In this document: positions 14,816 to 39,911 of the stretch, piece after piece
Numbering within the stretch: the stretch's first letter is position 1
Layout of the letters: the number at the start of each line of letters is the position of its first letter
Source of the DNA: Escherichia phage Shashou
Length of the DNA: 44,155 nucleotides
Sequence record: MK931440.1
Direction: 5' to 3' (one strand)
The notes under the pieces: model-generated
Databases searched by the model: none
Told to the model about the DNA's origin: nothing
What the model saw: the letters and a program-made list of their open reading frames with translations, nothing else
Position numbers and translations under genes: made by a program

Positions 14816-15175
14816 TTGCTCCAGTTTGCCCGTTGGAACTTCATAACCCGCCACAAACGGCGGGAGTTTGACAGTATCGCCGACGGGCATAAAGCCGCGC
14901 TAATTGCTATGGGGGTTATGCAAGACGCGCCGGAAGCAACGCAGGACACAGGGCCGGAATGCCCCCCTGAGCTATTAACCACCTTCGAGAAGTACAGGGA
15001 AATCAAATTCACCCGCCGAGTGGACGATGATGGCATCAAGATGTACCCGCGCGAACAGTTAAGATGGTCGGATTTAGTGGCATACAGCACCGTTTCAGGC
15101 CAGAATATAGGCATGTTCGAATCTGACATCATCATGAGCTTAGACGCTATTTTCGAGGGTAGAAACGATGGCTGA
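14816..15175 (+). CDS. tail assembly chaperone extension (putative -1 frameshift product)
   Basis: Frame is -1 relative to 14394..14810 and opens at 14783, upstream of the chaperone stop; overlaps tape measure start; no classical slippery heptamer identified. Confidence 0.35.
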   Translation: MLQFARWNFITRHKRREFDSIADGHKAALIAMGVMQDAPEATQDTGPECPPELLTTFEKYREIKFTRRVDDDGIKMYPREQLRWSDLVAYSTVSGQNIGMFESDIIMSLDAIFEGRNDG

Positions 15176-17504
15176 TGTAGCTAGTTTAGTTGTAAAAGTA
15201 TCAGAGCAAGGCGCGAAAGCTACATCAGACCGTCTTGATAACCTTTCCAAGTCTGCAAAGGTAGCCGGAGCTGCGGTAGCGGGCCTCGCTTCCATCGTCG
15301 CCGCTACCGCGTACAAGGCCGCACAGGAACTGGTAGACTCCCAACGGCAACTGGACAAGATGTCCGCCAGCCTGAAAACACTAACCGGAAGCACGCAGGG
15401 TGCAAGACAGGCGTTAAGCATCCTGCAAGACTTCGCGCGCGACACCCCGTATGGTCTTGAACAGGCGGTAGAGGGATTCCGTAAACTGGTGGCTCTCGGC
15501 CTTACACCGTCAGAAGAAGCGTTGCGCTCCTATGGCAACACTGCCGCTGCTATGGGTAAAGACCTTAATCAGATGATTGAGGCCGTTGCGGACGCCAGTA
15601 CATTTGAATTTGAGCGCCTTAAAGAATTCGGCATCAAGGCCAAGCAAAACAAAGACGATGTTGAATTTACATTCCAGGGCACCACTACGGTAGTTAAGAA
15701 GAGCGCTGCCGACATCGAGCAATACCTGCTCAACATTGGTAACGTAAACTTCGCGGGGGCTATGGCGGACCAGGCCAACACACTTAACGGCGCCATCGCC
15801 AGTGCCAGCGACTCATGGTCGCAGTTAAAAATGACACTGGCTACCAGCCTTGATGTTGGTGCTCTTGCGGAGCCTATCCGGTACATCGATGATTTAATCC
15901 AGGAACTTAACGCACAGGTAGCATCCGGCGAACTCGCTGCTGAGATGCGTATGTGGGGCGACATCGCGTCAGAAGTGGGAAGCGCGATAGAGATGTCGTT
16001 CGACGCGGCATTTGGTTTCGTAGGCGACGCAATAAACGGGCTGAATGAACTTTGGGACTTTAGCAGTAAAAGTATCACCGATAGCGGTGAACAAACGGCG
16101 ACAACCATCGCGGAATCAGCCGCCGATGCGCTCGATTTCATTGCGGAAGAATTTACCGCGATGGAGCGATTCTTTGAAGATATGGTTAAAGGGGCACAGG
16201 ACGCTGGCCGGTTGGTGAAAGCTGCCTTCACACCAGGGGAATCTGTAGACGTAGCAAAAAACATTAACTTCCAGTTAGGGATGGCACTGGATACTCAGCG
16301 CGATGTTGCGGACCTGACCCGTAAAAGTTTCCGCGAACAGGTGGAGGCTCAGCAAAATATTGTCGCGCTTAAACGCGCGGCATATGACATCGACAAAGAA
16401 GCCGCTAAGGGAGAAGGTCTTAGTAAATTTAAGGTAACTGGTACTGGTGGCGGATCCGAAGATGATAGCGCAGGTGCAAAAGCCGCTAAGAAAGCCGCAG
16501 ATGCGTTCGAGCGCCAGAAGAAAGCCGCTGAGGATTTCTACTACCAGTCGATTCATCTCAATGATGACGTATTCCAGAAAATAGAAGCCAACCAGGAACA
16601 GCAGCTAACCAAGCTACAGGAGTTTTACGGCAATCAGCTTCTTAGCGACCAGCAATACGAGAACGCTAAAACTCAGATTATGCTGGAGGCGGACACTGCA
16701 CGTCAGGAAGAACTCGCCAAGCGAGAGAAAGAACGGCAGGAAAAGAACCAGAAAGGCGAGGACTTCATGGCTCAGATTATGGGTCAGAATGCCGCAGAGC
16801 TTGAGCTTTTGGAGATTCAGGAACAACAAAAACTTGACGTTGCAGACCGATATCGCGAACAGAACCTTATTAACGAGGAGCAGTACCAGGCTGCGGTTAA
16901 TGCTATAAACGACCAGTATGCTTTGAAACGTGCCAACGCTACCGGTAACGCTTTCGGAATGATGGCGGATAACATGAAGGCCTCACTAGGGGAGGCGTCT
17001 GCCGCATACAAAGCGTTTGCCATTGCGCAGGCCACCATCGCCACATACACATCCGCCATCGAGGCTTATAAATCTGCATCGGCTATCCCTATTGTTGGAT
17101 GGGTGCTCGGGCCTGTAGCAGCAGCTACAGCGGTAGCGGCAGGTCTCGCTAACATCAGCAAGATTCGTTCGGCCCGTGAGCAGGGCGGTAACTTAGCCGC
17201 AGGTCAGTTATCTACTATCGCGGAACGTAACAAGCCAGAAGTTATTATGCCTGCAGGGGCGTCACGCGTACGTACCGCGGAACAGATGCGCCAGATTATG
17301 GGCGAGAACGGCAACAAGTCAGGCGGTGACAGCGTGACAATCGTCAACAACACCACCGGACGAGTTGATTCCGCCGTTACAGAGCGTGACGACGAAGGGC
17401 GGTTACGTGTTATCATCAGTGAAACAGTATCGGCGGCGTTACAAGACAGCAACAGTGCAATCTCCAAGTCCCGCCGGGCTACACGAAACCAGCCGGGGTA
17501 TTAA
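15168..17504 (+). CDS. tail tape measure protein
   Basis: 778-aa Ala/Gln/Glu-rich helical protein with C-terminal hydrophobic and Gly-rich region; canonical position. Confidence 0.85.
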   Translation: MADVASLVVKVSEQGAKATSDRLDNLSKSAKVAGAAVAGLASIVAATAYKAAQELVDSQRQLDKMSASLKTLTGSTQGARQALSILQDFARDTPYGLEQAVEGFRKLVALGLTPSEEALRSYGNTAAAMGKDLNQMIEAVADASTFEFERLKEFGIKAKQNKDDVEFTFQGTTTVVKKSAADIEQYLLNIGNVNFAGAMADQANTLNGAIASASDSWSQLKMTLATSLDVGALAEPIRYIDDLIQELNAQVASGELAAEMRMWGDIASEVGSAIEMSFDAAFGFVGDAINGLNELWDFSSKSITDSGEQTATTIAESAADALDFIAEEFTAMERFFEDMVKGAQDAGRLVKAAFTPGESVDVAKNINFQLGMALDTQRDVADLTRKSFREQVEAQQNIVALKRAAYDIDKEAAKGEGLSKFKVTGTGGGSEDDSAGAKAAKKAADAFERQKKAAEDFYYQSIHLNDDVFQKIEANQEQQLTKLQEFYGNQLLSDQQYENAKTQIMLEADTARQEELAKREKERQEKNQKGEDFMAQIMGQNAAELELLEIQEQQKLDVADRYREQNLINEEQYQAAVNAINDQYALKRANATGNAFGMMADNMKASLGEASAAYKAFAIAQATIATYTSAIEAYKSASAIPIVGWVLGPVAAATAVAAGLANISKIRSAREQGGNLAAGQLSTIAERNKPEVIMPAGASRVRTAEQMRQIMGENGNKSGGDSVTIVNNTTGRVDSAVTERDDEGRLRVIISETVSAALQDSNSAISKSRRATRNQPGY

Positions 17505-17507
17505 CCA

Positions 17508-18908
17508 ATGAGTGATTTGAGATTCCCTATGTCCCTTCGACCAATAGTGTCGAAGGGGTACTCCCAAACGCGAGGGAGTAATATCTGGCGTACAGAAGTG
17601 CAAGGTGGCGTACCGCGACAGGGGCGTGATACATACTTTGAGCCAGTGCCGATTAGCGTTACGCTCGTCGTATCGTCGCTCGGGCGACAGGCGTTCTATA
17701 GCTTCCTGAACAACATAGACGGCGGTGCGTCTTCATTTATCATGCCGCACGATACGGGTTTAGGTCTCGAAGACCACCAGGTACTTATTACGTCGGACAT
17801 TAGCGACAGCACCGACGATGGTAAAAACTGGGTAATTACTTTCACAGCAACCGCGGAGCGGACTGCGATTCAGGAAGATACCTGCCTTACGAAGAATCTA
17901 CCGGATTTGTTCGGTTGTTATGGGGATTGCTTAGGTGGATTCCTTAAAGCATACGGAGCCGCGCAATCAACGTTTCCACGAATTTGGAGCAATGAAGGGC
18001 CTGCCGGATACCCGCCGATTAACCTTCTGGCGCCCACGCTGGATAGCCGTATTGTGTACGACGGACCGCAGGTTTACTACATCAACCGAAACGGCAATCT
18101 TGTGCAGTCCGCCGTCAATGAATGGCCTCTTACGTTTATTGATGGGGTCGCTGTTGGGCGTGTGCCGCCGGAGGTTGGTGGTCTAAACCTACTAAAAATG
18201 TCAGAGGACTTATCGGATCCCGTATGGGCAAAAACAAGGACTACTGTTACATACGGCGGAACGCAAGACCCTACCGGCGGAACGGGCGCATCCAAACTAG
18301 TCCCAACAACAACCACTGGTACTCACAACGTTTTACAATTGATAACCCCGGAAGCATCTACGGCATACACCTATTCTGTTTTTGTGAAAGCAAATGGGTA
18401 CAATAATGCTATTGTTCAGATCGGAGTATTTGCTAGTCAGGTGGCAAGTAATCCTGTTTATGTAGACCTATCTACGGGGGTGATAACATCAGCTAATGAC
18501 TATTCAAGATGCGGGATAATAGCAGTAGGTGATGGCTGGTTTAGAGTATGGGTGCGAGTTATTACTAATTCCTCCCCGACAAGGATAAACGCGTCTGTGT
18601 GGGCCTCTGACGCTGCTAACAACACGTCTTTCCCAGGTGATGGTGTTAGTGCTATATCAGTTTTTGGCGCCCAAATGGAGAAATCTAATAATTCATCGTC
18701 GTATGTTAAAACCGAAGAAAATTTAATTACACGCCCCGCGGCATCGGCAAAAGTAACCATGAATGGTGCGGCAAGCATTGACATTACCTATTCCGACGGC
18801 ACTGTGGTAAACGTTCCGTCTGTTGACGGTTACGCCACCATCCCCCAAGCGGATTCTGCGTGGGGTAGCAAATATATCACCCGTATTGATTTTAATGTGG
18901 ACGGTTAA
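17508..18908 (+). CDS. minor/distal tail protein with AT-rich C-terminal extension
   Basis: First gene after tape measure; C-terminal half (about 18250..18750) is distinctly AT-rich, suggesting an acquired domain. Confidence 0.6.
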   Translation: MSDLRFPMSLRPIVSKGYSQTRGSNIWRTEVQGGVPRQGRDTYFEPVPISVTLVVSSLGRQAFYSFLNNIDGGASSFIMPHDTGLGLEDHQVLITSDISDSTDDGKNWVITFTATAERTAIQEDTCLTKNLPDLFGCYGDCLGGFLKAYGAAQSTFPRIWSNEGPAGYPPINLLAPTLDSRIVYDGPQVYYINRNGNLVQSAVNEWPLTFIDGVAVGRVPPEVGGLNLLKMSEDLSDPVWAKTRTTVTYGGTQDPTGGTGASKLVPTTTTGTHNVLQLITPEASTAYTYSVFVKANGYNNAIVQIGVFASQVASNPVYVDLSTGVITSANDYSRCGIIAVGDGWFRVWVRVITNSSPTRINASVWASDAANNTSFPGDGVSAISVFGAQMEKSNNSSSYVKTEENLITRPAASAKVTMNGAASIDITYSDGTVVNVPSVDGYATIPQADSAWGSKYITRIDFNVDG

Positions 18909-18911
18909 CTT

Positions 18912-19427
18912 ATGAGTCAGGAATCAGTAGAAGCAGCCTATCGCCGTAAGCTGGCATCAAACCCCGACGGCGAGATTGACTACACGACGCTGGAGATAGT
19001 GCATCCGCTTCTTTCGAAGCGGTATTTACTTGTGCGCGGAACTTCTGACCTGACGGCAACGTTAGAGACCGGAGAAGTAGTTACGTTTGAGGCCACACCA
19101 ATGGAGGCTAAAGGGGCCGCCAACAATAACGACATGGACCAGCGAGCATCGTTCGCATTGCCCGATATTGGAAACCAGTTAGACGATGAGATGGATAGGA
19201 TACCGCCCGATAATACCGTGTTGCCTAAGTTTATATTCCGCCGTTTTGTTAGTACCGATTTGTCTTACCCGGCTGACGGGCCTGTTGTGTATGAGTTGCA
19301 GTCGATAAACCAGGAAAAGGGGCTATTTACCGCCTACGTTGGCGTTCCTATGTTGAACCAAAGGGCCACTGGTGAACTAATGACCCCTTCAGTAATCCCA
19401 TTGTTACGGGGCGTTTTGTCCACATGA
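18912..19427 (+). CDS. minor tail protein (gpL-like, putative)
   Basis: Synteny in tail tip cluster. Confidence 0.45.
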   Translation: MSQESVEAAYRRKLASNPDGEIDYTTLEIVHPLLSKRYLLVRGTSDLTATLETGEVVTFEATPMEAKGAANNNDMDQRASFALPDIGNQLDDEMDRIPPDNTVLPKFIFRRFVSTDLSYPADGPVVYELQSINQEKGLFTAYVGVPMLNQRATGELMTPSVIPLLRGVLST

Positions 19428-19789
19428 ATATTAATTCTTATACAGGGTTGCCGTACGACTTTCGCCGTCGTAATTGCTGGCACCATGTCCGTAACGTTCG
19501 TGCGGATGTAGGCCTCTTTACGCCTGAGTTTAACGTCGCTTCGCCAACACAGATTAACGACGCCTTCGAAGAAGGCCATAAAGATACTAAAGGCCTTGTA
19601 CGCGTAGAAACTCCGCAAAACTTCGATGCCGTGCTGATGGCAACACGGCACAGAAACCGTGTAATCTGGCACGCCGGAGTATACTATGACGGTATGGTTA
19701 GTCATTGCGAGCTGGCGAGTCGCCAGGTACGGTTAGACCGTCTGGAAGACTTGCGCGAAACTTATGCGGAGATAGAATTTTGGCGCTGA
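19424..19789 (+). CDS. tail assembly protein (gpK-like, putative)
   Basis: Synteny; RRNCWHH cysteine/histidine cluster. Confidence 0.4.
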   Translation: MNINSYTGLPYDFRRRNCWHHVRNVRADVGLFTPEFNVASPTQINDAFEEGHKDTKGLVRVETPQNFDAVLMATRHRNRVIWHAGVYYDGMVSHCELASRQVRLDRLEDLRETYAEIEFWR

Positions 19790-22335
19790 CATTACATTAC
19801 ACCCGTAACGAAGACGGTACTTTCGACCGCGAACGGCACAACGTACCGCCGATGGAATACGTCGTCGCTAACATCCCCGACGGGGTGCCTGTACGTATTT
19901 ACCGTGGCGAGATCGGCGAGGACACGGAAGTAACTGAAGATTTCGAAGCGCTGAAAGAAGACGATGTTTTCCATATTATCGAAGGCGCTGGTGGCGGTGG
20001 CGGTTTTCTGGGTAAACTCCTGGACCCTTTGGGTGTGCTTAAATTTGTTACCAAGTTGATTTCTCCGTCGCAGAAAACGCCTAAAACGAGTTTAGCGAAC
20101 CAGCAGGCTGAGTCCCCCAACAACAGCCTGACGGACCGAAGCAATAAACCCCGTCCATATGAACGGTCGTATGATATTTGCGGCAGAGTCCAGACTATCC
20201 CTAATGACCTCATGACTACCTATAAAATATTCGATGAATCTGGTCGCATTATTGAATACGGATACTACGATGCCGGTCGTGGGTATCTGGACATCAAGGC
20301 CGAAGATATTACCGACGGCGATACTAAGGTACAGGAGATTACGGGGACCTCTGTCGCGGTGTACGCGCCGTTTACATCCCCCAACAATACAAATACCCCG
20401 CAGCTTCTGGTGGGGGAACCTATCAATCAGAATCTTTATATAACTATCGCGTCTAATGAAGTAGATGGAGCCGTTCTTAAAGCCCAGAACGATATTCGGG
20501 TCAACCCAAGCGACACGGGCCGCGTGAGATATGACTCTGCTACAAAAATTGGATACCTGTATGACGACACGGGGGATTCTGGCTTCGCGGAAATATTATC
20601 TGTTGGTGACACCGCGTCGTTCAATAACTTTGACGTTCCGGACGTAACAAATACCAACGGCAACTTTCGTGTTCTTTATGTCGATAACTTCGAGCTGCGG
20701 GTCGACACCGGCGGCGCGTCTAATTGGGCTGCTTTAGGCTCAACCACCTATTCACTTTCCCAGAGAAGTGACACGTGGGTAGGCCCCGTGGATACGTATG
20801 AAAGAACATTAACCGACTGGACCACCTTAAACCGCCTGGAAGTTGAACGCGTAGTAGCCAACATCGCTGCCGCTAACGGTATGTATAAAGACAACGGCAG
20901 TAAATTGCGTACGTCGGTAACTATTGAACTCCAATACCAACTACTCGATGAAACCGGTGCCCCATACGGGAGTATCTATTCAAAACAGGCCGTTATATCT
21001 GGTCGGTCCGCCGACTACACCGGAGTTACTATTTACGCCGACTTGCCCATGAGGTCGAAAGTTAGGGTACGTGCCCGTCGTGTTACCAACCTGGACCTTG
21101 ATTTCGAGGGCACCGTGGTAGACGAGGTTTCCTATATCAACCTTTACGGTCAGGTCCGTGACACTACGCCACATTACGGCAATCGTACCACCGTACACTC
21201 GGCACGTAAGCAGACGCCGCGGGCCGCAGAGATTAAGCAACCACAGTTACGTATGGTCGCCACAGAGATGGTGTACAAATACCTCGGTAATGGTGTATTC
21301 GACACCGTAATGACACCGAATACTCAGGCCATTCAATCATTAATACGTCTCGCCCGTGACCCGGTAGTAGGTAATCTCAACCTAACAACATCCAATATGG
21401 ACAAGTTGTTAGCGACTCAAACCGAAATAGAAAACTATTTCGGTAACGTTGAGGCTGGGCAATTCTGCTACACTTTTGACGACTATAAAATGACCATGCA
21501 GGATATCATCAGCACAATAGCCGATGCTATTTTCTGCACTCCATATCGTAAAGGGCAAGACATATTACTGGATTTCGAGCGCCCGCGTATGGGGCCGGAA
21601 ATGGTATTCACACATCGAAGTAAGACAACAGCTTCGGAAAAGTGGACGCGCACATTCAACGACGCTCAGGTATACGATAGTCTTAAGTTCTCCTACATCG
21701 ACCCAGATACTAACGTAAAAGAGACCATCAGCATTCCCGCCGAGGGCGGTGTTAACACAGAAACGTATGACTCTAAAGGTATACGTAATTATCGTCAGGC
21801 GTACTGGGCGGCGTACCGTCGGTACCAGAAGAACCTGTTGAAGAAGGTGACGGTATCATTCACGGCGACAGAAGAAGGGGTTTTTGTGCTTCCAGGACGG
21901 GCAATAAGCGTAGTTAAAGGTTCACGCGTAGCACCCCAAGACGGTTATGTTATTGCGGTTAATGGCCTTACCCTGACGCTATCACAGCCTGTTACGTTTA
22001 CCCCAGGAGATGACCACTCCATCATCCTCAAGAAGCGAGACGGAGGAGTTCAAAGTGTTGCCGTTGTGCCGGGAAGCCACGACCGTGAAGTGGTTATGCT
22101 ATCTGCGCCACAGGAAGCAATCTACACGGGGAATAGTGCGCTAAAAACTGAGTTTTCATTCGGCAACGAAGCAAGGCATAATGCTCAGATGATTCTTGTT
22201 TCCACAGTTGACCCCGGAGATGACAGAACGGTCAAGATTACGGGTTACAACTATGACGACGGATTCTATAAATACGATGGCGTCGCGCCATACGGCAGCG
22301 GTTTCTCCGACGGATTCAGCAATGGTTTTAATTAA
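19780..22335 (+). CDS. tail tip / central fibre protein (gpJ-like) with gpI-like N-terminal region
   Basis: Long ORF; start uncertain (track opens at TTG 19705; TTG 19780 has GGAG RBS; first ATG 19852); N-terminal Gly-run GAGGGGGF. Confidence 0.6.
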   Translation: MALTLHYTRNEDGTFDRERHNVPPMEYVVANIPDGVPVRIYRGEIGEDTEVTEDFEALKEDDVFHIIEGAGGGGGFLGKLLDPLGVLKFVTKLISPSQKTPKTSLANQQAESPNNSLTDRSNKPRPYERSYDICGRVQTIPNDLMTTYKIFDESGRIIEYGYYDAGRGYLDIKAEDITDGDTKVQEITGTSVAVYAPFTSPNNTNTPQLLVGEPINQNLYITIASNEVDGAVLKAQNDIRVNPSDTGRVRYDSATKIGYLYDDTGDSGFAEILSVGDTASFNNFDVPDVTNTNGNFRVLYVDNFELRVDTGGASNWAALGSTTYSLSQRSDTWVGPVDTYERTLTDWTTLNRLEVERVVANIAAANGMYKDNGSKLRTSVTIELQYQLLDETGAPYGSIYSKQAVISGRSADYTGVTIYADLPMRSKVRVRARRVTNLDLDFEGTVVDEVSYINLYGQVRDTTPHYGNRTTVHSARKQTPRAAEIKQPQLRMVATEMVYKYLGNGVFDTVMTPNTQAIQSLIRLARDPVVGNLNLTTSNMDKLLATQTEIENYFGNVEAGQFCYTFDDYKMTMQDIISTIADAIFCTPYRKGQDILLDFERPRMGPEMVFTHRSKTTASEKWTRTFNDAQVYDSLKFSYIDPDTNVKETISIPAEGGVNTETYDSKGIRNYRQAYWAAYRRYQKNLLKKVTVSFTATEEGVFVLPGRAISVVKGSRVAPQDGYVIAVNGLTLTLSQPVTFTPGDDHSIILKKRDGGVQSVAVVPGSHDREVVMLSAPQEAIYTGNSALKTEFSFGNEARHNAQMILVSTVDPGDDRTVKITGYNYDDGFYKYDGVAPYGSGFSDGFSNGFN

Positions 22336-22347
22336 AGAGGACTCTAT

Positions 22348-24720
22348 ATGTCAAGCGGATGCGGTGACGTTTTAAGCCTGGCGGATTTACAAACCGCCAA
22401 GAAGCACCAGATTTTTGAAGTTGAGGTTATCACTGGTAAATCCGGCGGTGTCGCCAGTGGTGCGGATATCGATTATGCGACCAACGCGGTTACTGGTCAG
22501 ATGCAGAAGACTCTCCCCGCCGTGTTGCGAGATGCGGGGTTCTTCCCGGCATCTTTTGATTTCACTACCGGCGGGACATTATCGACTACAGACCGCAATA
22601 AGGTCGTTTATGACCCAGTAAGCATGGCCTGGTATTCATGGGGTGGTTCTTTACCAAAGGTCGTCCCCGCGGAAACTAACCCGTTACTGGACACAAATTG
22701 GAAACCGCAAACAGACCCGAATCTACGCAATGACCTTGAAAATGGCATGTACAGAACGGACGCAACCGCCGTTAAATATGTCCCTGGGGTGGTTATAGAT
22801 AGCACAACAGATAACCGGGCCGCATTGTATGCATTCCCTGGCAAAGTTTATATCCCAAAAGACGTCCAGCTACGCTGTAATTTCCTGCCAGATGATGATG
22901 TAACAAAATTTACTGGTGAAGGAAAAATTCTCACGCGCGACCCATGGGGTAACGAGCACATTTTCGACGTTTCACTGGCAACTCATGGGAGCAAATACAC
23001 TGCATTCAACGTAATAAACCAGTTCGCTCGCCGCAATACGCTATGTCGTGTTGGTATCGTTGGTGACTCAATCACAGACGGTGCATACGGAACCGAATGG
23101 GTAGCCAACCCAACGGATTCAAACGGGGACCTGTCCTCGACTAATTATGACCACAATAGCAATGGTGGCGCAGGCTCCTGGTTCCGTACCTTCACGGACT
23201 GGCTTAACCGATTTACAAAAAATGGTGCTTTCATCTTTAAAGCAGAAAACTGCGCATCTTCTGGAAAGCGACTTATTGACGGGTGGGCTAATCGTAATTT
23301 CGACCATGGCTTTTTCAAAAACACTGCATACGGGAATGTTCCACCGGATGTCTGCTTTATGTCTATGGGCGTTAACGATAACGGCCAACTGAATACGTTA
23401 GGGTTCGATCAGTACTTATTCCGTTTTGAGCAGTTTATCCGTAAAGCATGGGGCTATGGATGTGCTGTCTGCGTTGTTTCAATGAACCAGAATGGCTCAC
23501 AATGGGCGGCTCTCGAGGCATCAATCAAGAAGCATATTGAACGCCTGTTCCCCGCGGTAGAGTTCCTCGATCTCTCTCAGGCAGTAACTGAGATGTACAG
23601 AGATGTCGGTAGCTACACCTTAGAAGAAATTTGCCGTCGTCCTACCAATGGCTCTTTCGACTACACGCACTTTGCGCCCCTTGGTCACCAATATATTGGC
23701 GCTTATGCCGCGACCAAGGTTATGCCTTATCGCGTCCATAAGGCCACAAAAGGGAATAATTTCCTGCCGGTGTCGCCTAACGATATCCAACCATTCGGGT
23801 ACCCTTCCGGCAGTACATATGACGTTTCTATGGAGCGACTTAGCGGAAATTCATACCTGAATGGGCTTACCGGATGGGGCGTGGTTGAGCCCGCTACTGA
23901 AAATTTAACCATACGATATTTTGTCTGGTGTGATACTTCTGACATATCAATGGTTATTTTTGAACCATATAACCCTACTTACATTGGTTCCAGGCGCGCA
24001 AATACTGTATCAATACGCCAACAAGATACCCGTAATACAGCATATAGCTCCGGTAATATCGCGAGTAATGGCGTCTCATCGTTTACGAACAAACTCACCA
24101 CACGAACTGGAATCCTTAGAAAAGGACTGAATCAGATTGAGATTGTTTACGATGGTACGCCGTCGAAAGTATACCCTCCCGCTCTGTTATTCAGAGGAGA
24201 GCTGAACGAATCATGTTCTCAGAACGCCTCTGTATACTTGGCTGCAAATGCGATAAAGGGTGTTTACGGGCAGGTAAGAGATAAAGCAGATCTCTTATTA
24301 GCGTATGGTGCAGAAACAGCAAATGATGAAGCGCCGGATATGTACGGCGCTACTAAGTCATCAAATGTTCAAAATGTTGTCCTGTCAGCTTTGCCCGTTG
24401 GTTGTGGTGTTGTTTTTTACTACAAACCCACGTCACAAAGTGGAGTTGTCGCCAAGAGAGTGGCGACTGGCATCGAGATCTCGACGATGCTTTTTGGCGC
24501 ACTTACTGTTATCGGCACCTTGACTTGCGATGTGACCGGCGAAGTCATGCTCACAGCCGGCCTGGCACCTTCAGTACCTACAATAACAGTTAAACCCACT
24601 ACCGGCGGCACTGTTCAACAAGCTGTTACTGGTCACTCTGGCGGCAAGATAGCCCTGATTAACAAGGGGGCTTCCGGTAACACAATAACGGTTAAATCTT
24701 CATCTCAATTCGTCATTTAA
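22348..24720 (+). CDS. tailspike / receptor-binding protein with SGNH (GDSL) hydrolase domain
   Basis: SGNH blocks in order: GIVGDSITDG, MSMGVNDNG, FDYTHF; C-terminal third AT-rich; followed by bidirectional terminator. Confidence 0.7.
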   Translation: MSSGCGDVLSLADLQTAKKHQIFEVEVITGKSGGVASGADIDYATNAVTGQMQKTLPAVLRDAGFFPASFDFTTGGTLSTTDRNKVVYDPVSMAWYSWGGSLPKVVPAETNPLLDTNWKPQTDPNLRNDLENGMYRTDATAVKYVPGVVIDSTTDNRAALYAFPGKVYIPKDVQLRCNFLPDDDVTKFTGEGKILTRDPWGNEHIFDVSLATHGSKYTAFNVINQFARRNTLCRVGIVGDSITDGAYGTEWVANPTDSNGDLSSTNYDHNSNGGAGSWFRTFTDWLNRFTKNGAFIFKAENCASSGKRLIDGWANRNFDHGFFKNTAYGNVPPDVCFMSMGVNDNGQLNTLGFDQYLFRFEQFIRKAWGYGCAVCVVSMNQNGSQWAALEASIKKHIERLFPAVEFLDLSQAVTEMYRDVGSYTLEEICRRPTNGSFDYTHFAPLGHQYIGAYAATKVMPYRVHKATKGNNFLPVSPNDIQPFGYPSGSTYDVSMERLSGNSYLNGLTGWGVVEPATENLTIRYFVWCDTSDISMVIFEPYNPTYIGSRRANTVSIRQQDTRNTAYSSGNIASNGVSSFTNKLTTRTGILRKGLNQIEIVYDGTPSKVYPPALLFRGELNESCSQNASVYLAANAIKGVYGQVRDKADLLLAYGAETANDEAPDMYGATKSSNVQNVVLSALPVGCGVVFYYKPTSQSGVVAKRVATGIEISTMLFGALTVIGTLTCDVTGEVMLTAGLAPSVPTITVKPTTGGTVQQAVTGHSGGKIALINKGASGNTITVKSSSQFVI

Positions 24721-24750: not shown

Positions 24751-24888
24751 CTACTCTTCGGATAACTTCTCCAGTACAAACGCCAGTTGCGCATTAGCGG
24801 CGTCTCTCTGTTGCCGTAGTCGTAGAACCTCTTCTTCGAGTTCCTCGATACGTTTTTGCAATGCCGGAATTGGGGCTATGATGTTCAT
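24751..24888 (-). CDS. small coiled-coil protein (45 aa), hypothetical
   Basis: ATGA overlap with helicase stop; heptad-like IEELEEEVLRLRQQ; ends at terminator; not in ORF track. Confidence 0.4.
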   Translation of the reverse strand: MNIIAPIPALQKRIEELEEEVLRLRQQRDAANAQLAFVLEKLSEE

Positions 24889-27350
24889 TTCTTACCTCGT
24901 CTCTTCATGTAATTAAGCAATTCTTCCTGTACAGATTTCTTCTCGTCGGTGCGCGCGGCAACAACCTCATCCAGCGTGTCTTTAGCGACGATGTGATAGA
25001 GGAACACCGGGCGCTCGTGTCCAGCCTGTTTCTGACGAACAGGGCCTATGCGCTCGACAACCTGCAAATAGTGCTCGAGGTTCCATCCCTGACTTATAAA
25101 CGCCAGATGATGCCCTCCATCCTGTAAATTCAAACCATGGCCGGCTGACGCGGGATGAACACATAAGATTTCGATTTCACCACGGTTCCACGCTTCCATC
25201 TGCTTATTACCCTTAGCTCCTTTGGCAAACGCCTTAGCCTGCGGGAATCGCTTAAGTATGCGCTCCAGTTCGTGTTTAAACTGATAGGCCACCAGTAACG
25301 GCGCGCCCTGCAACTCCTCAACAATGGACTCCAGTGCGTCCAGTTTCGTGTCATGCACTTTCTCCCAGTCTTTCGTTGCTTCGCCATCTGGCCCTGATAC
25401 ATACACGGCACCGGACGCAATCTGGAGACACTTTGATGTCTTCGCTGCCGCGTTAGCGGCTTCAACTTCCCCGCTCTCGAGTTCCGCAAATAACTTCTCC
25501 TCCATATCGATGTACGCCTGACGCGCTTTCTTCGGCAGGTCTATTTCAACAGGAACGATAATCGGCGCTTCGCAACCGAACCACTCTGCAGCATCGATAG
25601 TGAGACTGATATCCTTCATCTTCTGATGAATCTCGGTATCCGCGCCCGGGCGAGCGTGATACTCACGCGCCATAGCCGATTTGCCTTTCTGTATCGAATT
25701 AAACCAGCGGTCGGTAAACGCCGTATACGAAGAACCAAGTCGCTCGCCTGCGTCTATAAACCAGTTCTGCCCCCACAAGTCTTTGAGGCCGTTTGGTGAC
25801 GGCGTACCGGTCAGGTTGATAAAACGCTTAACCTTACCAAACGCCACTTTACTAAGCGCCTTTGCTCGCTTGCTGCCACCAGAACGGCTGCGGAACGATT
25901 TAAGCTTCGTGCTCTCGTCGGCAACGATAACTGTGAAAGGCCAGTCGTCTTTGCCGTAGTAGTCAATCAGCCACTCGATAACTTCGTAGTTAGTGCACAC
26001 CACGTTAGCGTCGGACTCAAGCGCCGTGATGCGGCGCTTCTCCGAACCGGTCGCATCTACTACACGCAGGCACGGGAAACCCCAACGTGCCTGTTCCGCG
26101 GGCCACGTGCCAGACGCAACACGCAACGGGGCGAGGATTAACACGCGGTCGTCGTCATTAAGTTGCCCATTACGGAACAGGCGGTTGAGAACCCACAACG
26201 TTGAGCTTGTATTGTGCGTGACAGTGAAGTCCCCCAATAAAAACCTACTGTCACCGTCGATAGTGAAGCCGAAATAATCATCTACGCCGACCGGGGTTAT
26301 GGATTCTATACCAACGTTAAGCACGTTCTTATTAATATTACGCTTCGGTAAATTCTGGTGGCGTCCTCGCACGAAAGGTACCTCAGAAAAATCGCCAGAT
26401 ACCGACACACGGAAGTAGTCACCCCAAACATCAGTGTTTGCGCAACGCTTACGAGTTTTCTTCTTGTAAGCAGCAAAACCAAGAGAACGGCATAGATAGC
26501 AAAAATCATCAGCAAGTCGCTCGCTTACCGAAATCCAGTCAAAACCCGCTTTAGACAAATCGCAGTAACCATCACTATCCAGAAGCCCCGCCAGCAATTC
26601 TAACCGCTGTCGCCGGTCGCCGCATTTGTAACTATGCGGTATATGCTTATTGTTCAGGACACCCGCCGATTTCAGCGCGTGCGTAAACCCGTGCTTCTTA
26701 TGACCTGTGTTGCCGTAAGATATACTCCATGTAAGTCCTTCTTTTCGTATTTGCATCCCATTACGTGCTGCGTACGACTCAAGATAAGCCCTTATTTCCT
26801 TTTCGTTCTCTCCTGATGTTATGGCCCCCGACGACGAAGTACCGTCACCCAGCCATAACCCCATAAGGTACGGAGGCAATAAAGCCTCGTCCTGCTCTTT
26901 CCTTGTAAAATCGACAGGTACCCGCCAACCCTTAAGATACCCATTAGGTCCGGTTACATATTTCGGCAACTTAAGCCAGTCGCGGACGCTTATGTCGAAA
27001 ACGGTATTATCTGGCCATGAACCTTTTGCAATCCCTGTAGTAGTTCGCAGGGATAATATATGGCTTTCGTTGACCGTATACGACTCTCCTTTTCGCGGTT
27101 TAACCTCGTACATCATCTCCCGGCCTCTACCGAGAGACAGTACATTTCTAGGCGTTGAATCCGGCCCCATAAGCACGTCACCGACGATGACGTCTTCTAC
27201 TTTCTTGGTCGTACCGTCAAACATAATAACTTCCGTCCCGCGTTTCAGGCACTTGCCGCTGCCCATACTAGCCCAGATATTGCAACGTGGGTGCTGTAAC
27301 ATAAACGACGTCATTATTTTCTGGTATTCCCTGCGCCTAAATTTACTCAT
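24885..27350 (-). CDS. SF2 (SNF2-like) helicase interrupted by an intein
   Basis: Walker A split as MGSGK | intein | TSSTLW; DExx box VIVADEST; C-terminal helicase motifs incl QVVERIGPVRQ. Confidence 0.8.
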   Translation of the reverse strand: MSKFRRREYQKIMTSFMLQHPRCNIWASMGSGKCLKRGTEVIMFDGTTKKVEDVIVGDVLMGPDSTPRNVLSLGRGREMMYEVKPRKGESYTVNESHILSLRTTTGIAKGSWPDNTVFDISVRDWLKLPKYVTGPNGYLKGWRVPVDFTRKEQDEALLPPYLMGLWLGDGTSSSGAITSGENEKEIRAYLESYAARNGMQIRKEGLTWSISYGNTGHKKHGFTHALKSAGVLNNKHIPHSYKCGDRRQRLELLAGLLDSDGYCDLSKAGFDWISVSERLADDFCYLCRSLGFAAYKKKTRKRCANTDVWGDYFRVSVSGDFSEVPFVRGRHQNLPKRNINKNVLNVGIESITPVGVDDYFGFTIDGDSRFLLGDFTVTHNTSSTLWVLNRLFRNGQLNDDDRVLILAPLRVASGTWPAEQARWGFPCLRVVDATGSEKRRITALESDANVVCTNYEVIEWLIDYYGKDDWPFTVIVADESTKLKSFRSRSGGSKRAKALSKVAFGKVKRFINLTGTPSPNGLKDLWGQNWFIDAGERLGSSYTAFTDRWFNSIQKGKSAMAREYHARPGADTEIHQKMKDISLTIDAAEWFGCEAPIIVPVEIDLPKKARQAYIDMEEKLFAELESGEVEAANAAAKTSKCLQIASGAVYVSGPDGEATKDWEKVHDTKLDALESIVEELQGAPLLVAYQFKHELERILKRFPQAKAFAKGAKGNKQMEAWNRGEIEILCVHPASAGHGLNLQDGGHHLAFISQGWNLEHYLQVVERIGPVRQKQAGHERPVFLYHIVAKDTLDEVVAARTDEKKSVQEELLNYMKRRGKK
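26211..27251 (-). mobile_element. intein with LAGLIDADG homing endonuclease domain (about 347 aa)
   Basis: Begins with Cys after GSGK, ends THN followed by Thr; LAGLIDADG-type motifs LMGLWLGDG and LAGLLDSDG; excision restores GSGKT. Confidence 0.75.
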
Positions 27351-38791: not shown

Positions 38792-38941
38792 ATGGTTACT
38801 TTGATGATTATGGAGTTCGAAAACAGCGCTGCAACTTACCGCGAGATGACTATGGCGCAGGCGTACCACCTGGCTAAACACAGCAACTTCTACAAGGCTC
38901 AAATCATTAATGAGTTTGGGGTAATTGACTATGAATTTTAA
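38792..38941 (+). CDS. small hypothetical protein (49 aa)
   Basis: RBS gagaggagagg downstream of promoter 38732..38760; not in ORF track. Confidence 0.4.
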   Translation: MVTLMIMEFENSAATYREMTMAQAYHLAKHSNFYKAQIINEFGVIDYEF

Positions 38942-39203
38942 CAGCTACACCGTGACCGTTGATTTTGAGGGGCTGGAGTTGCCCCTCCCTAACAACTACC
39001 GGTACATAACGCGCGATAGTAATGGGTTTATTCAGGGGTGGAAGAACAAACCGACGGATACTGAGTTCGGGATGTCAGGAGGAGAAGAGTTGCCGGTCAC
39101 TTTCGGGCATCAGAGTAGCAATGGAGAACTTAAAACGGTGATTCGTAAGTATCGTCGCCGCGATAACACCGGGCTTATCGCAATAACAGGCGCTGTTGAA
39201 TAA
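38931..39203 (+). CDS. hypothetical protein
   Basis: ATG at Met3 of track ORF. Confidence 0.45.
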   Translation: MNFNSYTVTVDFEGLELPLPNNYRYITRDSNGFIQGWKNKPTDTEFGMSGGEELPVTFGHQSSNGELKTVIRKYRRRDNTGLIAITGAVE

Positions 39204-39222
39204 GCGAGAGGAGAGACAGAAG

Positions 39223-39711
39223 ATGAGTAACAAAAACGAAGTATTCGAGTACCTGATTGACCAACTACGGCAGCAGGTAAATAGCAACCCGTACAAGCAA
39301 CAGTGCGAAGACCTGGCGCACGAGGTGTTGTCACTCAAGAATCAGTTACGTGATGCGTCAGAACATATTAAGGAGTTGCATAAGGCGTTGGCTGCAGCTA
39401 CGGGTGACGTAGGCGCTTATATAGCAGCAGAGCAATCTGGTTGCCGTAAGGAAGATACTCAGTACAACGCCTGGAGGCCGCATTATGGTGCACGACAACC
39501 TGTGCCGGATGGGACTATGGTATTTATCCGGTATCGCAACGGGGAGGAGCTGAAACACAGTGTAGCAGCAGAAAAGAGGTTGTGGATTTGGGATGGAACA
39601 TACGCAGACATAGTGGAATACAAGATTGACACACAGGAATGCGAGCACAATTGGTTATATAGTAAACACAAAAGTGGCTTCGTTTGCTTTAATTGTGGGG
39701 CGCGTAAGTAA
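39223..39711 (+). CDS. hypothetical protein with C-terminal Cys/His cluster
   Basis: Start at Met10 of track ORF with RBS gagaggag; C-terminal CEHNW...CFNC. Confidence 0.5.
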   Translation: MSNKNEVFEYLIDQLRQQVNSNPYKQQCEDLAHEVLSLKNQLRDASEHIKELHKALAAATGDVGAYIAAEQSGCRKEDTQYNAWRPHYGARQPVPDGTMVFIRYRNGEELKHSVAAEKRLWIWDGTYADIVEYKIDTQECEHNWLYSKHKSGFVCFNCGARK

Positions 39712-39911
39712 TGACCAGCGTCCTATTTATATGGGTACTGTACGCAGGCCAGTTACAACTAGCGGCAACAGAAACGTTTTACTCACTGGATGCGTGCCAG
39801 GCTGCGGCACGCAACGCAGAGAACGCGCACTTCCTGTTTCAGGATAAGCCGATTGATACTGAGGTGCGCGCGACATGTTCAACGAAACGATTAGCTAAGC
39901 AGGAGAAATAA
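39711..39911 (+). CDS. hypothetical protein with hydrophobic N-terminus
   Basis: Stop-start overlap; N-terminal VLFIWVLYAGQLQLAA. Confidence 0.45.
   Translation: MTSVLFIWVLYAGQLQLAATETFYSLDACQAAARNAENAHFLFQDKPIDTEVRATCSTKRLAKQEK

Follow-up and report, generated by a model that had tools for sequence, protein, structure and literature searches.

In phage lambda, the trimer of gpI is found in the lumen of the tail tip, where it holds the tape measure protein's C-terminus and plugs the tube (PMC10721106, PMC11101478, PMC12617516). Fusions of TAPI to TAPJ, located beside NlpC peptidases that lack the JAB domain, were described in 2006 by Iyer, Burroughs and Aravind in 'some prophages' (PMC1779556). 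In phage Sf11, gp14 was modelled as one chain that covers residues 81-827 and is present in three copies per virion, with the first 80 residues invisible, and neither gpI nor a ubiquitin-like domain is mentioned in that work (PMC12724387). The window analysed here, a stretch of 44,155 nucleotides from Escherichia phage Shashou (MK931440.1), contains a long tail tip gene directly 3' of a gene for a small NlpC/P60 peptidase. It is concluded, with a probability of about 85%, that residues 1-150 and approximately 150-851 of its product belong to one protein, a genuine gpI::gpJ fusion that is translated from TTG 19780 (Table 1).

Table 1. Location of the fusion gene, its modules and its upstream neighbors in the window
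Feature	Coordinates	Strand	Details
gpL-like baseplate hub 1 gene, 171 aa, DUF1833	18912..19427	+	Pfam PF08875 E=2.4e-17, phrog_396 E=3.5e-50
gpK-like gene, 121 aa, NlpC/P60 papain-like peptidase domain only	19424..19789	+	stop TGA 19787-19789
5' extension of the mechanical ORF	19705..19779	+	outside the gene; coding only in the gpK-like frame
Shine-Dalgarno GGAG	19768..19771	+	8 nt 5' of TTG 19780
gpI::gpJ fusion CDS	19780..22335	+	TTG start, TAA stop, 851 aa, 94.4 kDa
Predicted beta-grasp (ubiquitin/ThiS-like) domain, residues 1-68	19780..19983	+	putative counterpart of lambda gpI N-terminal domain
Glycine-rich linker GAGGGGG, residues 69-75	19984..20004	+	closes the beta-grasp domain
Amphipathic helix FLGKLLDPLGVLKFVTKLIS, residues 76-95	20005..20064	+	putative counterpart of gpI hydrophobic helices
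gpI C-terminal-like segment, residues 96-150	20065..20229	+	hhalign, conserved residues
Conserved core SPNNSLTDRSNKPRPYERSYDICG, residues 111-135	20110-20184	+	SPNNSL...DICG segment
TipJ-family hub region (gpJ hub domains), residues 354-831	20839..22272	+	NCBIfam NF040662 E=8.7e-114

On the + strand, the open reading frame is uninterrupted between 19705 and 22335 and contains 876 codons when counted from its first TTG. It had been predicted that this frame opens about 85 nt inside the upstream gene and that its start is ambiguous. The overlap of 85 nt with the gene of 121 aa (19424-19789) is correct for the mechanical ORF, given that the longest frame was taken, but not for the gene, which from TTG 19780 overlaps its neighbor by only 10 nt. 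The ambiguity is resolved in favor of this TTG by the conservation of the codon and of its Shine-Dalgarno sequence, and by the stop codons that relatives carry in the extension. Indeed, the 25 codons from 19705 to 19779 are open only in the closest relatives of the phage. Ro145clw has an in-frame TAG within them, and all of its differences in this segment are silent for the protein encoded in the gpK-like frame. K1G, Jersey, Otaku, and Shewanella phage 3/49, which represent four other genera, have a TGA two codons 5' of the common TTG, and in these same four phages GGAG or GAGG is found at equal spacing to the start. No Shine-Dalgarno site is found 5' of TTG 19705. Position 1 of phrog_31307 aligns with TTG 19780, and the annotations of fFiEco03, K1G, Jersey, Otaku, Shewanella 3/49, and Ro145clw use the equivalent start. 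Judged from these sequence comparisons, the start of the gene is TTG 19780. The location of the Shine-Dalgarno sequence and start codon within the 3' end of the gpK-like gene suggests that translation of the fusion is coupled to that of this upstream gene.

In the GenBank record MK931439 (Sciku), J is annotated from GTG 20035, with a nearby 'RBS', and positions 19790-20034 are unannotated. This start is 255 nt too late, so that 245 nt are left unannotated and 85 residues are lost, a loss that removes the entire ubiquitin-like domain and the linker and that constitutes a modest new point of this analysis. The labels of the protein in several related records vary between tail fibre, tail assembly chaperone, and hypothetical.

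The continuity of the frame across the junction was evaluated in the sequence and in its homologues. Comparison with Ro145clw gives a ratio of synonymous to non-synonymous differences of 10:3 in codons 1-68 and of 13:1 in codons 77-110, which at the sequence level indicates that purifying selection is acting on both sides of the glycine run. A single CDS of 811-1148 aa is located directly 3' of the gpK-like gene in K1G, Jersey, Otaku, VLCpiS11a, and Shewanella 3/49, and the same is observed in FSL SP-062, Vibrio 1.237.A, Acinetobacter R3177, and NX263; all ten sampled phages have one long protein. With the N-terminal 110 aa as the query, tblastn gave matches in 497 phage records, and 80% or more of the whole protein is present in a single place in 633. 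The search with phmmer of 1.84 billion representative proteins returned 58 matches, all of them at the N-terminus of proteins of 830-1500 aa or in truncated fragments, and no stand-alone gpI-like class was seen among them. For the short matches (122-236 aa), a reading as gpI-like proteins that stand alone was rejected, given that the six that were inspected enter the J-body or stop abruptly and, therefore, look like truncated fragments. A word-indexed search for homologues of the N-terminal 140 aa gave only 11 fragmentary matches in short contigs, which are uninformative on architecture.

The original prediction had considered either a genuine fusion or a short and a long gene connected through recoding or through an unrecognised start. 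The former is upheld by the open frame, by the purifying selection across the junction, and by the single long homologues, with the shared single-protein architecture found in every homologue examined. A short gpI-like gene followed by a J gene with its own start is very unlikely. This arrangement would agree with the annotation of J from GTG 20035 in MK931439, with the CDSs of 108 aa and 759 aa of Ro145c2YLVW, and with the BFVD entries of 78 aa and 108 aa for the N-terminal piece. Nonetheless, no stop codon divides the two parts in the zero frame, and no internal start is conserved: ATG 19852 and GTG 20035 lack a Shine-Dalgarno sequence or are not conserved, the latter being preceded by only a 3-nt GGA and replaced by an isoleucine codon in K1G, Jersey, and VLCpiS11a. 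Moreover, the 245 nt on the 5' side of 20035 are under purifying selection in the frame of the fusion, and the Sf11 chain runs without a break through the corresponding position. The reading of Ro145c2YLVW as a relative that keeps two genes was rejected, this being a single record with a 114-bp insertion that carries one TAA and is flanked by a near-duplicate of 51 bp. Given that its sibling Ro145clw is intact and that the two genomes (42145 and 42031 bp) differ by exactly 114 bp, the split resembles a single event or an artefact of assembly. Recoding, with the two parts joined or split by a programmed frameshift or by readthrough, can be considered practically negligible. The run of GGT/GGC glycine codons is repetitive, and tail genes elsewhere (the G/GT chaperones) use frameshifts, but the run lacks a canonical slippery heptamer and the single-frame architecture is kept in all relatives. 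In the other + frames, no ORF opens or extends close to 19984-20060; the closest one is located at 20234-20443 (69 aa).

It had also been predicted that the first 100 or so residues, up to the glycine run, resemble a small tail-assembly protein. The resemblance is sustained by the comparison with a gpI profile, but the proposed end is not, given that the module reaches approximately residue 150. The run itself, GAGGGGGF, corresponds to residues 94-101 of the mechanical ORF (nt 19984-20007). The AlphaFold2 model obtained with a 33-sequence alignment has pLDDT values of 92-97 for residues 1-68, with the topology b-b-a-b-(a)-b, and a beta-grasp domain is predicted for this segment. The best 50 Foldseek matches to the PDB are nearly all ubiquitin or SUMO, but with E values of at least 0.14; for the 175-aa model no significant match to gpI or to any other protein was obtained, and in BFVD only fragments of the family, and no gpI, were retrieved. 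The single-sequence AlphaFold2 model of the whole 851 aa has a pLDDT of 31 and is unusable. GenBank names the Sf11-like homologue of phage NX263 a 'MoaD/ThiS family protein', and no Pfam match to ThiS was found in 43 N-termini of the family. When aligned alone with the N-domain of gpI by hhalign, the N-domain gives a weak similarity (P=0.002-0.007), with scores of 16.5-18.1 compared with at most 11 for 40 shuffles.

The predicted beta-grasp domain is followed by a P-G-G-type motif (P/G-G-G) at the linker that is nearly invariant in the family alignments, and the 'glycine-rich low complexity linker' described for TAPI (PMC1779556) has its match in GAGGGGG. The helix at residues 76-95 is amphipathic and not transmembrane-like: its Kyte-Doolittle 19-residue maximum is 1.21, compared with 1.78 for lambda gpI and with 2.3-2.65, which is transmembrane-like, for the Shewanella, Vibrio, and Acinetobacter relatives. 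The comparison with lambda, which keeps gpI and gpJ separate, reveals a profile similarity that is strongest further downstream. Using a diverse gpI profile made from eight phages, the best local hhalign alignment pairs residues 91-136 with lambda gpI 152-195 (Prob 73.8, P=2.9e-5), with a score of 38.1, whereas 40 shuffles reached at most 22.2 and reversed profiles gave 11-13. With the single lambda gpI sequence the probability is 2.6%, and with a set of near-identical gpI sequences it is 17.5%, both of them weak. The alignment is colinear from residues 1-153 to gpI 14-210, and S112, N114, N115, N122, R125, R129, and G135 are invariant in 33 diverse relatives. Pfam PF06805 (Lambda_tail_I), whose HMM covers residues 14-97 of lambda gpI and gives E=1.1e-28 with lambda gpI, has no match at E<=10 in residues 1-110 or 1-297, nor in the 10 + 33 relatives. 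These profile comparisons indicate that residues 1 to approximately 150 are probably colinear with the whole of lambda gpI, the hhalign probability being only 74%.

Alternatively, the N-terminal 150 residues could be unrelated to gpI and contain another beta-grasp domain and linker that occupies the same gene position, with which the lack of a PF06805 match, the hhalign probability below 90%, and the non-significant Foldseek matches would agree. This is improbable, given that four elements are colinear, namely the beta-grasp domain, the glycine linker, a hydrophobic helix that ends in xSP/APK, and the motif N..SL/F...N...G..P..YG, and that each half independently outscores the shuffled controls. 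The same gene order after the NlpC/P60 gene and the precedent of the TAPI-TAPJ fusions (PMC1779556) also argue for a relationship with gpI.

The body of the protein had been predicted to be tip-protein-like, and its matches confirm it. Residues 354-831 score 380.6 bits with NF040662, versus a cutoff of 140, and the hub body matches phrog_469 (E=3e-243), Sf11 gp14 (PDB 9OCC_E, E=2.1e-22), and residues 312-533 of lambda gpJ (9E7M, E=1.5e-5; 8IYK chain J, E=2.6e-5). Pfam PF13550 (Phage-tail_3) gives 15.4 bits, below its cutoff of 23, and FNIII-A, whose cutoff is 27, only 14.5 bits. A lambda-type central fibre or receptor-binding domain is absent, given that the protein ends approximately 90 residues past the region aligned to gpJ 312-533.

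The genes are ordered gpL-like, gpK-like (NlpC/P60 only), and I::J fusion, which places the gpI-like module directly 3' of the gpK-like gene and 5' of the J-like body; the next gene after the fusion encodes a separate tailspike. The gpL-like gene occupies the position of Sf11 gp16 BH1P (PMC12724387). The family profile of the gpK-like protein aligns with lambda gpK (hhalign Prob 88.7, E=2.6e-6), with residues 4-95 on gpK 59-152, and with C18 and H83 at the positions of the catalytic Cys and His. It aligns only to this NlpC/P60 part, and nothing in its 121 aa matches the JAB part of gpK. The protein matches phrog_329 (E=8e-11) and has no match in Pfam; no significant BLASTP match was obtained with lambda gpK or with the NX263 NlpC/P60 protein, and the PDB sequence search was empty. 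A third-party HHpred note on this protein points to RipA.

It was also considered whether the fusion is made as one polypeptide from which the ubiquitin-like domain (approximately 8-9 kDa) is then cut, at or just after the glycine run, perhaps with the gpK-like NlpC/P60-only peptidase as the protease. In that case, the virion would contain a mature protein that begins near residue 76-81, with a predicted mass of approximately 85-86 kDa. Such processing is tentative and rather unlikely. The Sf11 cryo-EM model begins at residue 81, right after the equivalent linker, and the N-domain of lambda gpI was never resolved (PMC10721106, PMC11101478, PMC12617516), but flexibility explains equally well an unseen domain on a glycine linker. 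The Pro-Gly-Gly that ends the beta-grasp domain is conserved, as in ubiquitin-like proteins, and processing of TAPI by TAPK was proposed by Iyer et al. (PMC1779556); nonetheless, the protease of that hypothesis is the JAB domain, which is missing from the gpK-like protein, and NlpC/P60 enzymes are usually cell-wall amidases. By mass spectrometry gpK is absent from lambda virions (PMC11101478), and gp15 is not listed among the virion proteins of Sf11 (PMC12724387), which fits an enzyme of the assembly stage. Direct evidence for such a cut was found in no member; nothing usable was found in the literature on virion proteomics of Jersey-like phages, and the Sf11 supplement gives no peptide coverage. 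A more specific form of this proposal, to be taken with the same reserve, is that the ubiquitin-like domain acts as a removable pro-domain for folding or trimerisation of the hub that is clipped at Pro-Gly-Gly by the neighboring NlpC/P60 protein without JAB. If true, this would be 'C-terminal glycine' processing of the ubiquitin style in tail assembly, performed by a papain-fold enzyme, and it would explain both the absence of residues 1-80 from the Sf11 structure and the fact that gpK-type proteins are required for assembly yet absent from virions.

Taking the protein as a gpI::gpJ fusion, residues 1 to approximately 150 would be the counterpart of gpI (the 'insertion/plug' protein) and residues from approximately 150 to 851 that of gpJ's hub part (baseplate hub protein 2), with the central fibre of lambda missing and receptor binding left to the tailspike that the next gene encodes. 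If the tip is analogous to those of lambda and Sf11, three molecules of the fusion and three gpL-like subunits may form a closed cone under the distal tail protein, and the gpI-type segment may be released toward the outer membrane upon triggering. The ubiquitin-like domain would probably be a flexible or assembly-stage module.

The gpI::gpJ fusion is ordinary and not new, because it was published in 2006 and is common to hundreds of related phages. Nothing here will surprise a specialist, and the practical gain is one of annotation. The equivalence of residues 1-150 to gpI would explain why Guernseyvirinae, Sf11-like phages, and others have no separate I gene, and shows which part of the solved Sf11 hub is to be compared with the lambda plug. 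The question of the cleavage of the ubiquitin-like domain and of the substrate of the gpK-like peptidase was raised in 2006, and in a fused version cleavage would be visible as a simple size shift.

When compared with lambda, the fusion resembles gpI plus gpJ in the order of the modules (a ubiquitin-like domain, predicted in the fusion, then a glycine-rich linker, a hydrophobic helix, a conserved C-terminal segment, and hub domains) and in the position of the gene after the L-like and K-like genes. It differs in being one polypeptide instead of two, with gpI (TAPI) proteins being separate polypeptides of approximately 190-225 aa and lambda gpI having two strongly hydrophobic helices, whereas the fusion has one amphipathic helix. 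It also lacks the FNIII domains, the central fibre, and the LamB-binding C-terminus of lambda gpJ, and the gpK-like neighbor, unlike that of lambda, has no JAB domain. The TAPI-TAPJ proteins of Iyer et al. have exactly the arrangement found here, with a ubiquitin-like TAPI fused to TAPJ and an adjacent TAPK that is NlpC/P60 without JAB. Sf11 gp14 (9OCC chain E), the baseplate hub protein 2, is a direct homologue (E=2.1e-22), and phage chi has an equivalent. With 828 aa versus the 851 aa observed here, gp14 aligns in an N-terminal region (30-197) and a C-terminal region, with an identity of only approximately 25-30%, and the order of the tail genes is shared: TMP, DTP, BH1P, the small NlpC/P60 gene, BH2P, and tailspike. 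The protein pb3 of T5 likewise combines hub domains and a tube-closing plug in a single chain, but its plug is an insertion in HDII and the gpL equivalent is fused, whereas here gpL is separate and the plug-like module is N-terminal. Nonetheless, pb3 demonstrates that a covalent link between plug and hub is feasible.

The longest ORF here, 19705-22335 (876 codons), does open within the upstream gene with an 85-nt overlap, as the original prediction described, but the gene starts at TTG 19780 and overlaps the upstream stop by 10 nt (residue numbers refer to its 851-aa product unless stated). In 19400-22400 the window is 100% identical, with equal coordinates, to Escherichia phage Sciku (MK931439.1; Kagunavirus, Guernseyvirinae). 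Of the seven in-frame ATG, GTG and TTG codons in 19705-20060, TTG 19780 alone is preceded by a Shine-Dalgarno match of 4 nt (GGAG, 19768-19771, 8-nt spacer). This codon is the exact beginning of PHROG family 31307, and the gene is annotated as starting at the same TTG, with GGAG or GAGG upstream, in fFiEco03, Ro145clw, K1G, Jersey, Otaku, and Shewanella phage 3/49, the last four having a TGA two codons 5' of it. Ro145clw, with 89% nucleotide identity to Sciku, has an in-frame TAG inside the 19705-19779 extension, where its three differences are all silent for the protein in the frame of the upstream gene. Synonymous to non-synonymous changes against Ro145clw in the hub frame are 10:3 (codons 1-68) and 13:1 (codons 77-110). 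Given the sole 4-nt Shine-Dalgarno match, the PHROG start, the annotation of the relatives, the stops in the extension, and the selection, the start is placed at 19780. The 85-nt overlap results from longest-ORF calling, enabled by a TGA-to-AGA change in the immediate clade of Sciku.

Two later starts were rejected. ATG 19852 has no Shine-Dalgarno site and aligns with Ile, not Met, in Jersey. GTG 20035, the start in the Sciku GenBank record, has just GGA upstream, is Ile in K1G, Jersey, and VLCpiS11a, and would exclude 255 nt that are under purifying selection. With it, the record drops 85 N-terminal residues and leaves 19790-20034 (245 nt) unannotated.

It had been proposed that this ORF is either a genuine fusion or a short and a long gene linked by recoding or an unrecognised start. 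No stop codons occur in the hub frame, and no plus-strand ORF of another frame starting near the glycine run was found. The homologs share one architecture, given that all nine increasingly distant phages compared (K1G, Jersey, Serratia Otaku, Klebsiella VLCpiS11a, Shewanella 3/49, Salmonella FSL SP-062, Vibrio 1.237.A, Acinetobacter R3177, and Salmonella NX263) have a single long CDS of 811-1148 aa, which opens just where a small gpK-like gene ends and whose N-terminal extension is built alike. By tblastn, the N-terminal 110 aa are found in 497 phage records, and 633 records cover 80% or more of the full-length protein at a single location. An exhaustive phmmer search of residues 1-150 against 1.84 billion representative proteins gave 58 matches, which sit at the very N-terminus except in one repetitive protein, and the complete proteins have 830-1500 aa. 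The six short matches whose sequences were inspected are best read as fragments, because they continue into the J-body or break off.

The solved homologue, Sf11 gp14 (baseplate hub protein 2), aligns to the 851-aa protein from residue 30 and is modelled as a single chain, 81-827, with three copies per virion. The counterpart of the glycine linker ends directly before residue 81 and, therefore, the helix and the conserved segment that follow are joined covalently to the hub in an actual virion. The sole split version is that of phage Ro145c2YLVW (MH051334.1), where a 114-bp in-frame insertion with one TAA, bounded by a 51-bp near-duplicate of flanking sequence (region 2656-2820), divides the hub gene just past the helix into CDSs of 108 and 759 aa. 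The sibling Ro145clw has an intact gene (851 aa) without the insertion, and the genome lengths differ by exactly 114 bp. This split is treated as a rare, one-off real event or an assembly artefact.

The tip-protein-like body predicted after the N-terminal part was borne out. Residues 354-831 match NCBIfam NF040662 with 380.6 bits (cutoff 140), the body matches phrog_469 (E=3e-243) and gpJ, the hub protein of lambda (E=1.5e-5), and the 851-aa protein matches Sf11 gp14 (PDB 9OCC_E, E=2.1e-22). By sequence, the body is classed as a TipJ/gpJ-type tail protein.

The N-terminal part had been likened to a small tail-assembly protein ending at the glycine run (GAGGGGGF, nt 19984-20007, residues 94-101 in longest-ORF numbering). 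The likeness to gpI, the lambda tail-tip plug protein, holds at the profile level, but the module is longer, and the glycine run (residues 69-75 of the 851-aa protein) lies as a linker inside the gpI equivalent and does not end it. Sequence searches of Pfam, NCBIfam, and PDB gave no support for a gpI identity. Using hhalign, a 59-sequence alignment of family N-termini was compared with a diverse gpI profile (lambda, HK022, a T1-like phage, SSU5, eight enterobacterial sequences, and phages of Pseudomonas, Vibrio, Psychrobacter, Ralstonia, and Edwardsiella), yielding a Prob of 73.8%, P=2.9e-5, and a score of 38.1, versus 11-13 for reversed profiles and 22.2 for the top of 40 column shuffles. The best stretch pairs residues 91-136 with gpI 152-195, and at relaxed stringency residues 1-153 are colinear with gpI 14-210. 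The N-domains alone give P=0.002-0.007 (shuffles score 11 or less) and the C-parts alone P=2e-4.

AlphaFold2 (33-sequence alignment) models residues 1-70 with a pLDDT of 92-97 and a b-b-a-b-(a)-b beta-grasp topology. The top Foldseek matches of this model in the PDB are nearly all ubiquitin, SUMO, UBX, and CIDE domains, none of them significant (E>=0.14). The phage NX263 homologue, near-identical to Sf11 gp14 over the stretch compared, is a 'MoaD/ThiS family protein' in GenBank. The helix after the glycine run is amphipathic in the 851-aa protein (hydropathy 1.21), and its equivalent is transmembrane-like in Shewanella, Vibrio, and Acinetobacter relatives (2.3-2.65; lambda gpI, 1.78). In the segment after the helix, S112, N114, N115, N122, R125, R129, and G135 are invariant in the family.

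Tail module around the hub gene
Feature	Coordinates	Product	Remarks
Tape measure	15168-17504		
Distal tail protein	17508-18908	466 aa	
DUF1833 gpL-like protein	18912-19427		
gpK-like protein	19424-19789	121 aa	stop TGA 19787-19789
Hub gene (gpI::gpJ)	19780-22335	851 aa, 94.4 kDa	10-nt overlap with upstream gene
Tailspike	22348-24720		

The family profile of the 121-aa upstream protein pairs with residues 59-152 of lambda gpK, the NlpC/P60 part (Prob 88.7%, E=2.6e-6), with C18 and H83 coinciding with catalytic residues and no counterpart of the gpK JAB region in that alignment. The protein is, as judged from this profile, gpK-like. Since the N-terminus of the long protein is gpI-like, the gene order is L-like (gpL being baseplate hub 1), K-like, and then I::J.

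At its C-terminus, the distal tail protein carries a 'GTA head spike fiber' domain (NF048003, E=3e-31); in its place, K1G, Jersey, and other relatives encode a protein of only ~165 aa. The Sciku GenBank record starts this gene at 17529, leaving out 17508-17528, although the ATG ORF is already open at 17508. The record (43130 nt versus 44155 nt) also lacks ~1.02 kb, 38849-39868, encoding small early-region ORFs, one of 171 aa; given its ~95% identity to the sister phages Snoke and Schulenburg, this looks like ordinary Kagunavirus DNA left out of the record. On the minus strand, 24885-27350 encodes an 821-aa SNF2-type DNA helicase interrupted by an intein, already annotated in GenBank. The tailspike may deacetylate O-antigen, as suggested by its G7C gp63.1-type domains (PF21562, E=9e-30; G7C galactose-binding-like domain) and a weak match to GDSL/SGNH esterases. 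The hub region of phage fFiEco03 is 97.9% identical, but its tailspike is a different, HK620-like one of 663 aa and, therefore, the spike module has been exchanged right after the hub gene.

Lambda gpI is a structural protein with three copies per virion and an unresolved N-domain; its strands pass through gaps in the gpJ hub domains, and the plug opens once LamB is bound, with the helices proposed to move into the outer membrane (PMC10721106, PMC11101478, PMC12617516). In the window phage, three copies of the 851-aa protein and three gpL-like subunits would close the tail beneath the distal tail protein, which may carry the tailspikes as in Sf11. The plug function of gpI would be provided in cis by residues 76-150, and the ubiquitin-like domain may be a flexible or assembly-stage appendage. 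It is unlikely that this domain is instead released proteolytically at the glycine linker by the JAB-less NlpC/P60 neighbour. That the Sf11 model begins with residue 81 and that the N-domain of lambda gpI has never been seen both fit cleavage and disorder equally well.

The fused gpI::gpJ feature is real, conserved, and ordinary. The full gene (837-861 aa) has long been annotated in relatives, with a structure solved for one homologue. Two points deserve recording: the start set wrongly in the Sciku record, and the explicit assignment of the gpI plug region to residues ~91-136 of the family, the Sf11 paper making no mention of gpI or ubiquitin. In T1, the gpI-type 'insertion protein' is separate. 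Many E. coli entries of 335-389 aa, among them the lambda-type prophage proteins P0077, P0081, P0082, and P0085, carry both NlpC/P60 (PF00877) and Lambda_tail_I (PF06805) in a single polypeptide as apparent gpK-gpI fusions, which may be genuine, frameshift products, or artefacts of annotation, and the lambda K and I genes overlap by ~100 nt. The siphophage hub subunit ranges from one polypeptide (T5) up to three (lambda) (PMC13243795). Iyer, Burroughs and Aravind (2006; PMC1779556) described TAPI, the gpI family, as a ThiS/MoaD-like ubiquitin domain, a glycine-rich linker, and a small C-terminal domain, possibly cut by TAPK (gpK) at the glycine that ends the ubiquitin domain. They also described, for some prophages, TAPI-TAPJ fusions beside a TAPK reduced to NlpC/P60 and lacking JAB, and the window phage agrees with this description point for point.
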